Shown here piece by piece: positions 42,876 through 47,929 of a DNA stretch of 64,000 bases. The number at the start of each line of letters is the position of its first letter. The stretch's first letter is position 1. The notes under the pieces are model-generated. The model searched no databases, had not been told where the DNA came from, and was given only the letters and a program-made list of their open reading frames with translations. This DNA is from Candidatus Bathyarchaeota archaeon. GTDB taxonomy: Archaea; Thermoproteota; Bathyarchaeia; Bathyarchaeales; Bathycorpusculaceae. Location: NCBI GenBank assembly GCA_963782525.1, contig CAWAKC010000004.1, positions 1 through 64,000 of the forward strand. The letters run 5' to 3'. The translations under genes were made by a program, and so were the position numbers.

Positions 42876-43892
42876 ATGTTTTTATCTCTTAATTTTGGCT
42901 CATACTACATTAGGGTAATGGGATATCAATTGCTAAGTAGAAAAAAACTAGTAGTTTTTGCTCTAATTGCAGTAATTTCCATTTCTTCAGGTATATATGC
43001 ATATTCAAATTTTATAACAAACCAAGACTCAAAGGTTGACGATTCAAACAATGATTTGCTTATTGAAAGCTTTAGTCCCTCAACAATTGGAAGTAATGTA
43101 ACTGGTGGCACATTTGTGCTCGTCAACCTCACAAACAAGAATTTTGAGAACCTAACATTAACTATTAAAATCGACGATTCAGATCTAATAATACCGAATT
43201 TACGTTTACAAATACATCTACCTACCGAGGCGCCTTTTGGTAATTATAGCGTTCCAATAACCCAAATAAGCATCGAGCCAAATCAAAATCAGACGATTCA
43301 ACTTTATCTTTATGATCCAACCCAAAATGAGACTAGTCAGCTTTATCGTACAAGTGTCAACTTACAAACTTTTAGTGCTCACATACTACGGTTCTATATT
43401 ACCCAAAAGACACTGGGAGACATAGTTAACGGTCAATCCTTAACAATTCCTCAAGAAAAGGCTTACTTACAAATCATCAGTTACAGCTCAATAGAACACG
43501 ATAATGAAACGTGGCATGAGTACTTTAACAGCAGCACAAACCGGTATGGGTATGTAAACGACCAACCTAACTTCTACCAACAGTACTATCATGCTGCCTA
43601 CTACCCAATGGAACCAGACTCTTACAGTTGGGCAAAAGCCATAAACCAAATCGGCGAACACTACTTCAATGTAACAGTATTCAACAATGGCACCTTTCCT
43701 GTGGATAAGATAGCGTTTTATTCGAGGGAAGGCGGAGTGTCATTTGCAATTGATAAGATCCTTCAACACAACGAAACCTATATTTTCCCTGTAGCCGCCA
43801 GCGGTGCAAACTGGTGGAGTGTTGAGAGCGTTAATCAACTGAGCAATTTCTATCCAGCGCAAGCCTATGCAAGTGGCGATTTGTACAAGTAG
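42876..43892 (+). CDS. Membrane-anchored/secreted hypothetical protein
   Basis: N-terminal TM after RKK; Asn/Thr-rich with many N-x-S/T sequons. Confidence 0.65.
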   Translation: MFLSLNFGSYYIRVMGYQLLSRKKLVVFALIAVISISSGIYAYSNFITNQDSKVDDSNNDLLIESFSPSTIGSNVTGGTFVLVNLTNKNFENLTLTIKIDDSDLIIPNLRLQIHLPTEAPFGNYSVPITQISIEPNQNQTIQLYLYDPTQNETSQLYRTSVNLQTFSAHILRFYITQKTLGDIVNGQSLTIPQEKAYLQIISYSSIEHDNETWHEYFNSSTNRYGYVNDQPNFYQQYYHAAYYPMEPDSYSWAKAINQIGEHYFNVTVFNNGTFPVDKIAFYSREGGVSFAIDKILQHNETYIFPVAASGANWWSVESVNQLSNFYPAQAYASGDLYK

Positions 43893-44051
43893 ACATAGTG
43901 AGTTAAACAACAGTTAAGAAACCTTGACAAGTAATAAGCGCTGTTCAGTCAAGATTAATTGGTCTTGGTCATCTTCTCGCTTTTTTACGGATTCTTGCAC
44001 AGCTCCTCAATGATCGCATATTGTCTCGAGTACACTTTTGTACTGGTAAGC

Positions 44052-44093
44052 CTTAAATAAAACATTTCAGTATACTTCTGAACCATAAGGAAG
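44052..44093 (+). promoter_or_regulatory. trp operon TATA box and SD-like sequence
   Basis: CTTAAATA at ~44052-44059; AAGGAAG at 44087-44093, 8 nt before ATG 44102. Confidence 0.55.
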
Positions 44094-44101
44094 CATGACA
44101 A

Positions 44102-45524
44102 ATGGGGAATCGCCTTTGGCAAAACACCAACACAAACCCAACACACAGTCAACCCACTAAACTACGTTAAATTCAACTACACAAACCAACCCATAGAAAT
44201 TTTCTCAAAACTCCACCAAAAATACAAAGCCGCCTACCTTTTAGAATCCATCGAAGGCCCCCAAAAACTTGCCCAATACTCGTTCTTAGGGTTCGACCCA
44301 AAAATCACTGTGACAGCCAAAAACGGAACTGTCACAACAACAAACCAGAAGACCAATCAAACCACCACCCAGCAAACTAGCGACCCCTTCAAACTCATAA
44401 AAGAGCAATTGCAACCCTACGCAAACGAAATGGTGGACTTCCGTTTTGTCGGCGGCGCATTAGGGTACATTTCCTATGATGCCATACGGTACATCGAGAA
44501 ACTGCCCAACCAAAAACCCGATGACCTCCAGTTTCCTGATTTGGAGATGGGTATTTTTGAGGACGGAATCGTTTTTGACCACACCATCAATCAGGCTTAC
44601 TATTATTTTAGACGCGAAAACCGATTAAAAGAAATCCAGACATTGGTCGATGAGCCAGCATCAGAAGAAGCACCATTCACCTACACTCAGCCAACTGTCA
44701 ACACGACAAAAGAGGATTTTGAGAAAGCTGTCGAAAAAGCCAAGGAGTATGTGATGGCTGGAGACGTATTTCAAGTTGTCCTCTCCAAACGTTTCCAGTT
44801 CCAATACACTGGCAGCCTCCTAACTTTCTACAAGAGTCTACGCCAAATCAACCCTTCACCCTATATGTTCTACTACAAATCTGACAAACGCCAAATCGTC
44901 GGCGCTAGCCCAGAGATGCTCGTCCGCATCGACAACCGAAAAGTCATAACTTTCCCAATTGCAGGCACAGCGCCCGCCACTGCAGACCACAAAGAAAACC
45001 TGCGCCTGGGCAAAGAACTGTTAAAAGACCAAAAAGAACGCGCCGAACACGTAATGCTCGTAGATTTAGCGAGAAATGACCTTGGCAGGATCAGCAAGTA
45101 CGGAAGCGTATCGGTTCCGGAGTTTATGCAGGTTCACCAGTTCAGCCATGTTCAACACATAGTTTCCCAAGTCATGGGCGACTTGCAAGAAGGATTAGAA
45201 AGTTTTGATGCCCTAAAGGCGGTGTTTCCCGCAGGTACAGTTTCGGGTGCACCCAAAGTCCGAGCCATGGAAATAATCGAGGAACTTGAGCCGTCGCGCC
45301 GTGGACCATATGCTGGTGCAGTCGGGTATTTCAGTTGCAACGGTAACGCAGACTTTGCCATAACAATACGCACCCTATTCGCTGAGGGCAATCAAGCGTA
45401 CATCCAAGCGGGTGCAGGCATTGTCGCTGATTCAGTGCCAGAGAAAGAGTGGTTTGAAACTGACCACAAAGCCAAGGCGCTTATGAAAGCGCTTGAACAT
45501 GCCGCAGGAGGCAATCAACCATGA
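44102..45524 (+). CDS. trpE: Anthranilate synthase component I; reading frame open from 44082 but first in-frame start is GTG 44310
   Basis: AYLLESIEG...YSFLGFDP encoded upstream of 44310; NPSPYM, GASPE, EHVMLVDLARND, PAGTVSGAPK. Confidence 0.9.
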
Positions 45525-46105
45525 AAGTACTGGTTATCGATAACTATGATTCGTTCGTTTACAATCTTGTCCAATACATAGGGGAACTCGGCGCAGAAAC
45601 CGTGGTTTACCGAAATGACCAAATCACCCTAACTGAAGCTGCAGAAATCAAGCCTGATCGCATCGTGATTTCGCCTGGACCTGGCAACCCCGAGGACGAC
45701 AAGTTCTTTGGCGTCTGCAAAGCAATCTTGCAAACCTTGAGCCCAACCATACCCACCTTGGGCGTTTGCTTGGGGCATCAAGGAATCATCCATACGTACG
45801 GCGGAAAAGTTGTTCACGCTAAAAAACTCATGCATGGCAAAACCTGTACAATAAAACACAACCAAAAAGCGATCTTTAGGGGTGTCCGCAATCCCCTCTG
45901 TGCAACTAGGTACCATTCGCTTGCGGGCGAACGAGAATCCATCCCCGATTGTCTTCAAATTACGGCGGAATCTGTCGAGGACGGCGAAATCATGGGCATC
46001 CGCCACGTCAAATACCCGATTTACGGTGTCCAATTCCACCCTGAATCCATTCTTTGCGAAGACGGCAAACTCATAATCAAAAACTTCCTGGAGAATAAAC
46101 AATGA
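45521..46105 (+). CDS. trpG: Anthranilate synthase component II
   Basis: IDNYDSF, SPGPG, GVCLGHQ, QFHPES. Confidence 0.96.
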   Translation: MKVLVIDNYDSFVYNLVQYIGELGAETVVYRNDQITLTEAAEIKPDRIVISPGPGNPEDDKFFGVCKAILQTLSPTIPTLGVCLGHQGIIHTYGGKVVHAKKLMHGKTCTIKHNQKAIFRGVRNPLCATRYHSLAGERESIPDCLQITAESVEDGEIMGIRHVKYPIYGVQFHPESILCEDGKLIIKNFLENKQ

Positions 46106-47160
46106 TTCGGGAAGGCATCCAAAAACTCATCGAAGCCAAAAACTTAACGTCTGAGGAATCAGGTGAAATCATGCAAGAAGTTATTTCCGGAAAAGCCACA
46201 AACGCTCAAACCGCCGCTTTTCTAACGGCTTTGCGTATGAAGGGCGAATCGGTTGAGGAACTAATAGCATTCGCTTCGGTAATGAAGAGCAGTAGCTGTC
46301 AAATTCACCCTAATGTGCATGGACGCTTAGTGGATACTTGTGGCACGGGCGGAGATAAAATAAAAACCTTCAACGTGAGCACGGCATCGGCGTTTGTTAT
46401 TGCAGGCGCTGGGGTCTCGGTCGCCAAACATGGAAACAGGGCAGTTACAAGCAAAAGCGGCAGCGCAGATGTTCTCGAAAAACTGGGTTTAAACATAAAC
46501 TTGGAACCTAAAACCGTTGAAGGCATCATAGAAAAAATCGGGATAGGCTTCATGTTTGCTCCAGCGTTTCATCCTGCCATGAAGTATGCTGGCGAAACCA
46601 GACGCGAGATCGGCATCCGAACCGTTTTCAACATCCTTGGACCCATAACAAACCCTGCATGTGCCAATGCTCAAGTACTCGGAGTTTACGATTCAAAACT
46701 GGTGGTTCCTTTGGCTTTTGCCCTTGAGAAGTTGGGTTGTCTAGAAGCGATGGTTGTTCATGGACTGGACGGATTAGATGAGATTTCCACGATTGGAAAA
46801 ACCATCATTGCACATCTAAAGAAGGGTAATGTGGCGAAAATGGAGTTGGTTCCCAGCAATTTTGGAGTAAAAACCGCAGCGATAGCTGATTTGCAGTCGT
46901 CTTCATCCGAAGAAAGTGCTGAAATTCTCTATAAAATCTTAAGTGGCAAAACCGTTGATGATGCGAAGGCAGAGATTGTGCTCGTTAACAGTGCAGCAGG
47001 AATAATCATTGGCGGCAAAGCAGAAAACTTTGCGGAAGGCATGGAATTAGCGCGAAAATCCATCGCGAGTGGAGCGGCATACAACAAACTAAAAGAATTA
47101 ATTAAAATATCAAATGGCAGCTTACAAAGACTTGAGGAGCTTGAAGCAAAATATGATTGA
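46102..47160 (+). CDS. trpD: Anthranilate phosphoribosyltransferase
   Basis: DTCGTGGD, NVST, KHGN, GSAD. Confidence 0.96.
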   Translation: MIREGIQKLIEAKNLTSEESGEIMQEVISGKATNAQTAAFLTALRMKGESVEELIAFASVMKSSSCQIHPNVHGRLVDTCGTGGDKIKTFNVSTASAFVIAGAGVSVAKHGNRAVTSKSGSADVLEKLGLNINLEPKTVEGIIEKIGIGFMFAPAFHPAMKYAGETRREIGIRTVFNILGPITNPACANAQVLGVYDSKLVVPLAFALEKLGCLEAMVVHGLDGLDEISTIGKTIIAHLKKGNVAKMELVPSNFGVKTAAIADLQSSSSEESAEILYKILSGKTVDDAKAEIVLVNSAAGIIIGGKAENFAEGMELARKSIASGAAYNKLKELIKISNGSLQRLEELEAKYD

Positions 47161-47929
47161 TTTCCTAGACACATTAGCAATGGATGCGACGAAAACAATT
47201 GACAGCGGATACTACAAAACCGCTGCGTCCACGAACAAACCGAAGGTTAGCCTAAAATACGCAATCTTGCAATGCAAAGCTAACCCAGTGATAACGGAGA
47301 TTAAAGCAGCCTCTCCCTCTCTTGGCACGATCAGAAGCCAAGTGAACCACAAAGAAATTGCTAACGCCATGGAAAAAGGCGGCGCCGTCGGCATTTCAGT
47401 TTTAACCGAGCCCAAACACTTCCAAGGCTCCCTGTCCGCACTGATTCAATCAAGAGAAGTAGTTAAACTGCCCATACTGATGAAAGACATCGTCATCGTT
47501 GCGGAACAAATCGAAATTGCAGCACAGATTGGCGCAGATGCGGTTTTGCTAATTCAAGGGCTTTTTGATAAGGGATGCTGTGAAATGAGCGTAGACAAGA
47601 CTGTAGCATTTGCCCATTCAAAGGGACTCGAGGTTTTGCTTGAAACCCACACCGCAGAAGAATTTCAAGCAGCGGCTGAAACAGACGCAGACCTAATAGG
47701 GATAAATAACCGAAATCTCGGAACCCTAAAAATCGACTTAAACACTACAAAAGAAATCCTCAAAAAAAATGGTGATTGCGGCAAAGTGGTGGTAAGTGAA
47801 AGCGGAATCAAAACACCCAAAGACCTGCGTTTCCTCCGTGAATGCGGCGCAAAGGCTTTCCTCATTGGATCGCGCATAATGTTAACTGAAAACATTGAAG
47901 ATAAAGTCAAGGAGTTTGTAGAAGCATGA
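47153..47929 (+). CDS. trpC: Indole-3-glycerol phosphate synthase
   Basis: [25 protein letters not shown]; ATG at 47153. Confidence 0.95.

Follow-up and report, generated by a model that had tools for sequence, protein, structure and literature searches.

The window, by which we mean the whole 64,000-nucleotide stretch of DNA that was analysed, holds a tryptophan operon on its + strand whose first gene, trpE (anthranilate synthase component I), lies in a frame with no canonical start codon ahead of its conserved N-terminal domain. The trpE frame is closed upstream by a TGA at 44079-44081 and is open from 44082 to 45524. Its first in-frame ATG, GTG or TTG is the GTG at 44310, which comes after 76 start-free codons, and the Pfam domain Anth_synt_I_N begins at residue 36 of the translation from 44082, well upstream of that GTG. 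The identity of the gene is given by its Anth_synt_I_N and Chorismate_bind domains and by its operon, in which it is followed by trpG (45521-46105), trpD (46102-47160) and trpC (47114-47929), with the Pfam domains GATase, Glycos_transf_3 and IGPS. The starts of these three genes, which occupy 45521-47929 on the same strand, overlap the preceding stops (ATGA), and their translation is probably coupled to that of trpE.

The archaeal promoter core TAAGCCTTAAATA (44047-44059, + strand, with the TATA element TTAAATA at 44053-44059) is almost invariant in relatives, and the usual archaeal distance from TATA element to start would place the beginning of the transcript near 44080-44083. Just upstream of the TATA box are two TGTACA-like boxes (AGTACA at 44029-44034 and TGTACT at 44039-44044, together an unstranded feature), a candidate operator for a transcriptional regulator, and the arrangement TGTACA-N4-TGTAC is kept at the matching place in nearly all of the relatives' trpE promoters. 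Presumably these boxes resemble the TRP boxes of TrpY. Binding of TrpY to TRP boxes is described in the available part of a 2019 mBio article (PMC6737238). A Shine-Dalgarno-like AAGGAAG (44087-44093, + strand) stands 8 nt before the ATG at 44102; the genome-wide mode of this spacing is 7-10 nt, and relatives keep a purine- or G-rich block at -14 to -10, with G at -13 in 47 of 57. The 16S 3' end, GGAUCACCUCCU, was located with the Rfam SSU model after a look-up with a typed consensus had given no match.

The ATG at 44102 opens a zero-frame ORF of 22 codons (44102-44170, + strand; MGNRLW..., MGNRLWQNTNTNPTHSQPTKLR) that has a single Trp codon and a TAA stop at 44168-44170, and this would be the fate of ribosomes that do not shift. 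Its first 19 nt, ATG GGG AAT CGC CTT TGG C (44102-44120, + strand), form a cassette of an out-of-frame start, an anti-SD-like GGGG(A)AT and a proposed shift heptamer CTT_TGG_C, made up of CTT (44114-44116), TGG (44117-44119) and C (44120). A +1 step from CTT to TTT (44115-44117) brings GGC (44118-44120) into the trpE frame, and read in this way trpE runs from that GGC to the TGA at 45522-45524. The original prediction had described a trpE frame open from 44082 and start-free before 44310, a TATA box near 44052 and AAGGAAG ahead of the ATG, the 22-codon ORF with its one Trp codon and the slip from CTT into the trpE frame; all of these are present and every coordinate and frame relation checks. 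A second ATG at 44095, absent from that account, lies in the third frame; as a start it was rejected, being 1 nt from the SD and having counterparts in all three frames among relatives. The TTG at 44116 was likewise rejected, as it opens a short ORF in the third frame, and so was an alternative code with TGA read as Trp, under which the trpE frame still has no upstream start and trpE itself ends in TGA.

The degenerate motif RTGRGGNRTNNNNTTTGG matches once in the 64-kb window against 0.03 expected, has 4 other matches elsewhere in the genome and recurs upstream of the relatives' trpE. The cassette precedes 79 trpE genes, in every case with its start one base off the gene's frame (-1), and these genes come from several orders of the class to which the window belongs (probably Bathyarchaeia) and from two families outside it. 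The counts of starts and codons given here are based on the 74 unique trpE cassettes, and parsimony was carried out on a TrpE tree of 71 taxa. The out-of-frame start is kept in 74 of 74 cassettes (68 ATG, 5 GTG and 1 TTG), with three changes on the tree that are all from start to start. An assembly indel or a dead gene, whether through a missing A with a start at TTG 44116, as the original prediction had offered as its alternative, or through an A lost after ATG 44095, is refuted for the cassette as a whole and is to our mind a negligible explanation. Several genes of this genome do look, by eye, broken at runs of A6 to A8, and in three relatives (L008, L014 and L028) an in-frame ATG ACA AAA TGG contains one A that the window lacks. 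However, the frame relation is common to 79 trpE loci of independently assembled genomes, many of them with trpE-frame stops right up to the ATG, and it is kept while the bases after TGG differ among species.

Numbering the cassette so that TTTGG is 13-17, we reconstruct no change at positions 1, 2, 4, 8 and 13-17, as against 10-17 changes at the neighbouring trpE-frame wobble positions and 13-25 in the flanks. The freely varying positions are 3, 6, 9 and 12 (11-17 changes), which are wobble positions of the trpE frame, while T8 and A7, which in the zero frame are a wobble and a second position, hardly vary and C18 is mostly conserved. T15 is also a trpE-frame wobble position, yet it never changes; since TTT accounts for only 49% of Phe codons in the genome, T15 is held for UGG and UUU and not for Phe. 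The codon that would occupy the P site is always NUU (CTT, GTT, ATT or TTT), and the UGG that follows is invariant in a genome where Trp codons number 12 per 1000. Past this Trp codon the zero-frame ORF, which has 7-34 codons in relatives, is not conserved.

The gene behind the cassette keeps its frame. Between the cassette and the LLES motif lies a linker of 34-45 codons, in frame in 71 of the 71 cases examined. In 45 of the 74 unique cassettes, the stretch from the closest upstream stop to TTT GGC contains no canonical in-frame start. Ribosomes must therefore have come into the trpE frame by TTT GGC at the latest. In 28 of 74 cassettes a TGA in the trpE frame overlaps the ATG itself. One relative, G006, carries ATG AGG AAC CAC CTT GAC in frame with trpE, with one T fewer, TGG lost and T8 changed, and like the prfB genes that lack the shift this is a natural non-shifting form. 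The leader combines a zero-frame ORF with its own start and ribosome binding site, a product in the +1 frame that has no canonical start of its own, a P-site codon able to re-pair (CUU_U, UUU_U), and nucleotide conservation beyond coding needs together with in-frame orthologs, which are among the features by which programmed +1 frameshift sites of the prfB and Ty1 type are recognized.

The same cassette, also in the -1 frame, precedes the gene for tryptophan--tRNA ligase (trpS) in 9 genomes of another class (probably Methanomethylicia). These genes score 225-231 bits against TIGR00233 (cut-off 176.75), and trpS homology begins 3-6 residues after the cassette. NTT_T is found in all 9 trpS cassettes as it is in all 74 trpE cassettes, and the cassettes of loci L115 and L061 are identical at 19 of 19 bases. 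No match to trpE was found in 5 of the 9 genomes with a trpS cassette. Nothing in the cassette is specific to Trp except the invariant UGG of the zero frame, and the presence of the cassette before both trpE and trpS ties it to tryptophan. The window genome's own trpS has a normal ATG. As for second matches to the specific pattern in relatives, 15 of 20 regions in one set and 11 of 16 in another either are not followed by a long ORF or fall within a different gene. A genome scan for short ORFs that have an SD and a start, and whose +1 frame is a long start-less ORF, gave 8 matches, of which only trpE is convincing. Taken together, the start kept out of frame, the invariant TTTGG, the in-frame form in G006 and the trpS copies are consistent with the +1 shift at CTT_TGG that was originally predicted, and the relatives' trpE 5' regions, when aligned, bear out the conservation of both the out-of-frame start and NTT-TGG.

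One feature of the cassette does not follow from such a shift. Positions 4-12 show the variation expected of translation in the trpE frame, giving Gly-(Ile/Val/Met)-(Ala/Val/Thr)-Phe-Gly upstream of the proposed shift site; extended anti-SD pairing or a weak in-frame start for basal expression could be invoked as ad hoc explanations. The main rival does without a frameshift and has trpE start at the near-cognate ATC at 44109-44111 (+ strand, trpE frame), or at an ATG or GTG at positions 4-12 in some species, with the ORF from ATG 44102 as an overlapping uORF that modulates a weak start. Positions 7-9 are indeed ATN in 71 of 74 cassettes (GTY in 3), the first two bases being those found nearly invariant and the third being free, as would be typical of a near-cognate start. 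A canonical in-frame ATG or GTG is present at positions 4-12 in 19 of 74 trpE and 7 of 9 trpS cassettes, and these do not strictly depend on a shift. In databases some of the genes are called with starts at MAFG..., MFG... or MVTFG..., and a few other genes of the genome look, by eye, to be ATA-initiated behind a good SD.

Even so, we consider a near-cognate start unlikely. The SD block lies 8-10 nt before ATG 44102 and so at least 16 nt before the ATC, while the GRGG of the cassette is 1 nt away from it, both outside the range of 7-10 nt. Loci L044 and L048 have GTT or GTC at position 7 and no other in-frame start, and G006 uses the ATG itself in frame. The invariance of T15, and hence of the zero-frame UGG, is left unexplained, as is the association with trpE and trpS. 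Additionally, a ribosome stalled at UGG would be expected to cover the ATH, and starvation would then reduce expression, the opposite of what either gene calls for.

The pattern at positions 4-12 could also be accounted for by an early programmed +1 shift at codon 2 (AUG RGG N to GGN AUH), giving a product Met-Gly/Arg-Ile-Ala-Phe-Gly in which the UGG is a by-product of Phe-Gly. Such a shift would account for the invariant G4 and G5 as well; within their families AGG and GGG are used least in this genome (12% of Arg and 10% of Gly), and re-pairing should retain two G-C pairs. We nevertheless regard it as quite unlikely. It leaves T15, with its 0 changes, and the conservation of C18 unexplained, and it offers no tie to tryptophan although the cassette sits on trpE and trpS. 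The variants ATG GGT GAT (L045) and ATG GGT GGT (4 trpS loci) cannot re-pair in this way, yet they retain NTT TGG, and Gly-Ile-Ala-Phe-Gly is dispensable, being missing from G006 and from the four TrpE of family f24 that have normal starts.

The cassette region shows no sign of acting through RNA structure. RNAalifold found no conserved structure over -22 to +45 in the 74 sequences, the window's own fold has an energy of -6.3 kcal/mol as compared to -5.9 +/- 2.7 kcal/mol for shuffles, no Rfam family matched at E<=1, Trp_leader included, and there is no attenuator terminator on the + strand. Attenuation and riboswitch mechanisms are therefore without support: a leader-peptide attenuator of the Trp_leader type was rejected on its one Trp codon, the lack of a hairpin pair and terminator and the missing Rfam match, and a T-box riboswitch, which would need a structured leader with specifier loop and T-box bulge, on the lack of structure and of an Rfam match. 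RNA editing and transcriptional slippage were rejected as well, because RNA-library contigs of relatives (records 4 and 8) cross the cassette with no indel in 44102-44139, with the qualification that contigs drop rare variants and that DNA carry-over is possible. One RNA-library contig joins an adapter at 44101. Among the sequencing runs screened, none had more than 0.23 of the sampled words. Conservation at the nucleotide level beyond the needs of either frame, with a conserved operator-like palindrome just upstream, might still point to a DNA or RNA binding site (an operator or a protein or RNA target) that contains ATG and TGG only by coincidence, with trpE expressed by another route. This we hold to be very improbable: no structure or Rfam family was found, and an untranslated site has no reason to stay in frame across linkers of varying length, to keep a start codon through exchanges of ATG, GTG and TTG, or, as in G006, to give way to a precise fusion in frame.

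On balance, we favour the view that 44102-44120 is a tryptophan-sensing programmed +1 frameshift site that gates trpE and, through the overlapping stops and starts, probably trpG, trpD and trpC, a proposal drawn from comparison of sequences. Ribosomes placed by AAGGAAG would start at ATG 44102 and read Met-Gly-Asn-Arg-Leu, which brings CUU (44114-44116) into the P site and UGG (44117-44119) into the A site. With charged tRNA-Trp plentiful, UGG would be read, the zero frame kept and translation ended at TAA 44168-44170 with no TrpE made. With charged tRNA-Trp scarce, the A site would stay empty and the peptidyl-tRNA-Leu could re-pair on UUU (44115-44117), after which GGC would be read in the trpE frame. 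One point that counts against a shift here is that a five-residue peptidyl-tRNA on a stalled ribosome may drop off. Re-pairing on UUU at both CUU_U and UUU_U is described for the RF2 shift in the available sections of a 2016 review (PMC5009743). The genome has a single-copy tRNA-Trp(CCA) and both tRNA-Leu(GAG) and tRNA-Leu(UAG).

The heptamer alone cannot be very shifty, since NTT-TGG is not avoided in frame genome-wide (829 observed and 646 expected) and the 1597 long ORFs contain 38 instances of CTT TGG C. The G-rich stretch over the start codon, UGGGGAAU, is partly complementary to the 16S 3' end and probably stimulates the shift as an internal SD-like element. The distance from its GRGG core is 6 nt to NUU and 7 nt to UUU, and as GAGG-type SDs in the genome number 5 at 6 nt and 65 at 7-10 nt, the +1 position would fit the anti-SD better. 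Bacterial +1 stimulators, according to the same sections of the 2016 review, are internal SD-like elements 3 nt 5' of the shift codon (PMC5009743). A spacing of 3 nt is reached in the cassette only if pairing extends through A7-U8, as in the GGUGAU and GGUGGU variants (L045 and four trpS loci).

We found no report of such a device in the literature. Going by the distribution of the cassette, we lean slightly towards a wider reading, in which its 19 nt, composed of a start codon, an anti-SD-like G tract and NUU_UGG_N, are a portable module for recoding with which ribosomes would gauge charged tRNA-Trp and answer by a +1 shift. The module would be older than the divergence of several classes in one archaeal phylum, and would act on trpE in prototrophs and on the gene for Trp-tRNA synthetase where no trpE was found. 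For the control of tryptophan synthesis in archaea, TrpY and Tar are the only regulators named in the part of the 2019 mBio article available to us, which anticipates that other lineages use a third mechanism (PMC6737238). 'Hungry-codon' frameshifting has for decades been familiar as a translational error, and its natural use is left open in those sections of the 2016 review (PMC5009743). For archaeal recoding, the available part of a 2021 review gives one -1 case (fucA1), a likely +1 shift in a haloarchaeal virus and a suggested magnesium chelatase frameshift, and has no established cellular +1 programmed frameshift on record (PMC8211752). If our reading is correct, the cassette would be without precedent both as a programmed frameshift that senses an amino acid and as a cellular +1 programmed frameshift in archaea, where it would play the part that attenuation and T-boxes play elsewhere. 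As a module of 19 nt free of structure it would also be the simplest amino-acid sensor known and a potential small genetic part. For annotation, the consequence is that gene callers give cassette-bearing trpE and trpS truncated or arbitrary starts.

The closest comparison is to bacterial prfB (AGG GGG UAU CUU UGA C), with which the original prediction had drawn an analogy. Both have a short zero-frame ORF from a true start, a CUU (NUU elsewhere) that re-pairs or would re-pair on UUU, a G-rich anti-SD-like element upstream, a functional protein in the +1 frame, and some orthologs that are in frame without a shift, as far as prfB is covered in the available sections of the review (PMC5009743). 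The analogy is imperfect, the GRGG core being 6 nt and not 3 nt from the shift codon. In the cassette, moreover, the A-site codon is the sense codon UGG and not a stop, charged tRNA-Trp would be sensed and not the gene's own product, the shift would come right after the start codon, at codon 5/6, and in an archaeal host, and the element is common to two unrelated genes.

The CUU_AGG_C of yeast Ty1 and ABP140 is one base from CUU_UGG_C; there a P-site tRNA-Leu slips at a slow sense codon and GGC follows, in the account of Ty1 and ABP140 given in those sections (PMC5009743), and the cassette would work by the same mechanism. The slow step in Ty1 is a constitutively rare tRNA-Arg, which sets a fixed ratio, whereas in the cassette it would vary with amino-acid supply and so make a sensor. 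Eukaryotic antizyme is likewise, in this source, sensor and effector of metabolite homeostasis through a +1 shift (PMC5009743), but it shifts at a stop codon, on a small-molecule (polyamine) signal and in response to high levels, where the cassette would respond to scarcity of an aminoacyl-tRNA. The pheL leader of E. coli (CCC_UGA) would share with the cassette the occurrence of frameshifting in the leader of an amino-acid biosynthesis operon, but that shift is judged in the same sections to be incidental to attenuation and to make no functional trans-frame protein (PMC5009743).

With trpL attenuation the cassette would share its logic, in that a ribosome on an early Trp codon of the trp mRNA reports charged tRNA-Trp and sets trpE expression. 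It differs in having one Trp codon in place of tandem codons, in lacking terminator and antiterminator hairpins, and in having its leader ORF fused to trpE by the change of frame. The T-box riboswitches of Firmicutes are also one portable Trp-specific device that controls both trpS and trp operons, as the cassette would. A T-box, however, binds uncharged tRNA by means of some 200 nt of structured RNA, and the cassette is 19 nt without structure.

Our re-reading of the window matched the original description of its sequence exactly. The trpE frame is closed upstream by a TGA (44079-81), is open from 44082 to a stop at 45522-24 and, as had been claimed, lacks an ordinary start, the first ATG, GTG or TTG being GTG 44310, 76 codons into the open frame. 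This GTG cannot be the trpE start because the 44082 translation enters the Pfam N-terminal domain of anthranilate synthase as early as residue 36. The predicted TATA box (a strong archaeal TTAAATA, 44053-59), the AAGGAAG (44087-93) and the 22-codon ORF from ATG 44102 are all present at their positions, and two TGTACA-like boxes (44029-44) lie upstream of the TATA box. ATG 44102 opens the 19-nt cassette ATG GGG AAT CGC CTT TGG C (44102-44120), whose frame, here the zero frame, is one base behind that of trpE; the zero-frame ORF ends at TAA 44168-70. A second ATG (44095), 1 nt past the Shine-Dalgarno (SD) sequence, opens a 21-codon ORF in the third frame (44095-44160); in relatives the corresponding ATG may occupy any frame of the three. 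The operon order is trpE-trpG-trpD-trpC with successive stops and starts overlapping. Between cutA and the trp promoter lies a 338-codon ORF (42876-43892) that is rich in Asn, Ser and Tyr, has an N-terminal hydrophobic stretch and gave no match in a Pfam search.

To compare trpE 5' regions we searched relatives' whole genomes with the trpE-frame translation and anchored the loci by tblastn on the conserved N-terminal domain. In the initial set an in-frame TTTGG with a start codon 13 nt upstream in the -1 frame was found at 59 of the 62 loci having an N-terminal match; of the other three, two are cut by contig ends and the third belongs to G006, a relative discussed below. The same frame relation in so many loci rules out an assembly indel, the alternative that the original prediction had allowed for. 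Once loci from further orders of the class had been included and duplicates taken out, 74 unique cassettes were left, throughout which the out-of-frame start and NTT-TGG are conserved; with three further genus members and two loci from families not in the class (L111, L112) the set comes to 79 trpE genes. Judging by the sources given for similar database proteins, the class would be Candidatus Bathyarchaeota/Bathyarchaeia. Within the window's genus the specific 19-nt pattern matched in 49 of 55 genomes; the six without a match comprise G006, three genomes (G013, G269, G267) in which the last base is the sole difference, and two with no trpE match in the search. In another family of the class (f24) four trpE genes start normally and lack the cassette, so the residues it encodes are dispensable for the enzyme. 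The pattern also occurs inside a conserved ORF in three related genomes (L070, L071, L078; family f34). By eye this ORF resembles a homing-endonuclease-type protein, and we regard the pattern there as having arisen by chance and been inherited once.

The consensus is RTG RGG NRT NNN NTT TGG N, with 68 ATG, 5 GTG and 1 TTG as start codons (n=74). Counting from the A of this codon as position 0, a G-rich block lies at -14 to -10 (G at -13 in 47 of 57), which is the usual SD distance, since among 456 clear starts of the genome 65 have GAGG 7-10 nt before the ATG and 5 have it at 6 nt. Parsimony on a TrpE tree of 71 sequences, built without six truncated-gene loci and two duplicates, gave no changes at positions 1, 2, 4, 8 and 13-17, 1-3 changes at positions 0, 5 and 7, and 10-17 at positions 3, 6, 9, 10, 11, 12 and 18, with 13-25 in the flanks. 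The invariance of T15 is not due to the protein, because it is the trpE-frame wobble position (TTT/TTC) and TTT makes up only 49% of the genome's Phe codons; it would instead preserve a zero-frame UGG together with a UUU for re-pairing. Past UGG the zero-frame ORF shows no conservation and is 7-34 codons long, while the trpE-frame linker from cassette to LLES motif (34-45 codons) is in frame in 71 of 71. The post-cassette linker (44121-44200) is of low complexity (Thr/Gln/Lys/Pro), variable in length and A/C-rich, with 13% G over +19 to +60 in 76 loci. No downstream structure follows the cassette, the next 40 nt being A/C-rich and G-poor, and the linker may be kept free of structure.

Most of these genes seem unable to begin in their own frame. 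No canonical trpE-frame start lies between the nearest upstream stop and TTT GGC in 45 of the 74 cassettes, and in 28 a trpE-frame TGA overlaps the ATG (A TGA GG). Another five have only a far-upstream ATG within the promoter's conserved GTATGC element, which, judging from its distance to the TATA box, is probably untranscribed; five have a trpE-frame start at -14 to -2, and 19, mostly of one family, an ATG or GTG at positions 4-12. In G006 the cassette reads ATG AGG AAC CAC CTT GAC with its ATG in frame with trpE, the T run one shorter, TGG gone and T8 changed. It appears to be a natural control for how a frameshift site would look once 'fixed', much like the prfB genes that do without a shift. 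These comparisons make it likely that most species need a programmed +1 recoding event somewhere in the cassette.

Where that event takes place is less certain. The free positions 3, 6, 9 and 12 are trpE-frame wobble positions and the zero-frame wobble T8 has no changes, so that the trpE-frame reading, (Trp/stop)-Gly-(Ile/Val/Met)-(Ala/Val/Thr...)-Phe-Gly, looks coding-like upstream of the proposed shift, which does not fit a shift at NUU_UGG. This pattern could reflect a near-cognate ATH start at position 7 (44109), the ATG ORF being a plain overlapping uORF, or an early +1 shift at codon 2 (RGG_N). We place both below the Trp-sensing shift, as they leave the T15 invariance and the tie to Trp genes unexplained; moreover, the ATH start has no SD at a workable distance and two cassettes lack any start-like in-frame codon, and GGT variants would be unable to slip at codon 2. 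One could speculate on a combination of basal expression from a weak in-frame start and induction by frameshift, which would fit in-frame canonical starts being commoner on the essential trpS (7/9 cassettes) than on trpE (19/74).

The tie to trpS came from a phylum-wide pattern scan, in which five of 16 matched regions examined were true matches, two before trpE in other families and three before a different gene. In family f57, ATG AGG GAT RGY GTT TGG C precedes, in the -1 frame, an ORF of 360 codons identified as tryptophan--tRNA ligase (TIGR00233, 225-231 bits against a cut-off of 176.75; Pfam tRNA-synt_1b), with homology beginning 3-6 residues past the cassette. A protein search in the class of f57, which by source names is probably Candidatus Methanomethylicia (56 genomes; 17 inspected of 30 returned loci), found the cassette before trpS in 9 genomes of three families; four of the nine have the variant ATG GGT GGT NNN NTT TGG, and the eight inspected trpS genes that are more distant start normally. 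L115 (trpS) and L061 (trpE) are identical at 19 of 19 bases. The window genome's own trpS starts normally, and a trpE search gave no match in five of the trpS-cassette genomes (92-99% complete). Many archaeal TrpRS entries of other lineages (P0076-P0091, P0099) begin M-x-x-F-G or carry ...HWGIHFG..., so more trpS genes than those of the nine genomes may carry the cassette or what remains of it.

The invariant zero-frame UGG is the cassette's only tryptophan-specific element, and ribosomes would thus have to read the zero frame up to UGG and make the product in the +1 frame from the next base. We think the original model is the only one in which Trp shortage raises expression. Given strong comparative evidence, namely the conservation on trpE and the link to trpS, we consider its Trp-sensing shift at CTT-TGG, or NUU_UGG in general, reasonably likely to be the +1 event. 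Initiation would occur at ATG 44102, as conservation, SD spacing and G006 suggest, and UGG, read by a single-copy tRNA-Trp, would then wait in the A site. Frameshifting at starved Trp codons is on record in human cells (PMC8942854), and hungry-codon frameshifting in general is treated in a review (PMC5009743). The putative stimulator is the G tract overlapping the start (G2-G5), which matches the anti-SD (16S 3' end GGAUCACCUCCU). Its distance is 6 nt to NUU and 7 nt to UUU, which makes the +1 position the better match to the usual SD spacing. In five cassettes of two lineages positions 3-8 are GGTGAT or GGTGGT, complementary to AUCACC of the 16S end. Pairing may therefore reach A7-U8 and leave the 3-nt spacing of bacterial +1 stimulators (PMC5009743), although this is a hint only, since an in-frame GTG arises from that change as well. 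Past the cassette TrpE (44082-45524) contains one Trp, in ...EKEWFET..., compared with a frequency of 12 Trp codons per 1000 across long ORFs of the genome, so it could be made under Trp scarcity. In-frame NTT-TGG is not avoided in the window's genome (829 observed, 646 expected), and specificity must then come from context or starvation.

A second level of control may exist for the trp operon, because operator-like boxes are also present. The TGTACA-N4-TGTAC boxes directly 5' of TAAGCCTTAAATA (44029-44059) are kept in trpE promoters across the class and beyond and look like a candidate operator for a Trp-responsive transcription factor; we take them to resemble TrpY TRP boxes. Between TATA box and SD lies a conserved stretch, GTATGCTTCTGAAC (GTATACTTCTGAAC in the window, 44066-44084), with an ATG that in some relatives is in frame with trpE and is used by gene callers (MLLNH...KWGIAFG). 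From the TATA distance it is probably at or before the transcription start. In an RNA-library contig of a relative (run X16) the sequencing adapter is joined directly to position 44101, one base before the ATG, which may mark either the end of a fragment or the 5' end of an RNA, as contigs cannot distinguish the two.

At least 40 start-free codons occur in 43 of 1312 ORFs of at least 250 codons in the window's genome, and among twelve viewed by eye several look broken at A6-A8 runs or by mid-gene frame changes and a few resemble genes that start at ATA after a good SD. The assembly therefore has local problems, and trpE is set apart only by its conservation. Several genes outside the window either have no canonical start or switch frame part-way at A6-A8 or G runs, and assembly indels are the probable cause; by eye we noted SufS-like, aminotransferase-like (contig C7), FAD monooxygenase-like (C2), fumarase-like and DnaG-like (C3) genes, and an amidotransferase-like and a DnaG-like gene may start at ATA behind a good SD. 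A genome scan for an SD, start and short ORF with a start-less long +1 ORF gave eight matches, of which trpE alone is convincing. None of the public runs searched contained the organism itself (largest share of sampled words 0.23). RNA-library contigs of relatives (records 4 and 8) span the cassette with no indel, which argues weakly against editing or transcriptional slippage and is silent on the transcript start.

Our literature search on trpE, archaeal or Bathyarchaeo* frameshifting, hungry Trp codons and starvation sensors returned no such device in the texts covered, which included few subscription journals, so an earlier description is possible. In the part covered of the 2016 frameshifting review (PMC5009743) there is no trpE case, and pheL frameshifting is called incidental. 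A 2021 review of archaeal recoding (PMC8211752) names a single -1 case, together with a haloarchaeal-virus event that is likely +1 and a frameshift suggested for magnesium chelatase genes of archaea. Regulatory +1 frameshifting is already known as a kind, and what would be new in the trpE and trpS cassettes is the signal sensed, the domain and the modular distribution over two genes.
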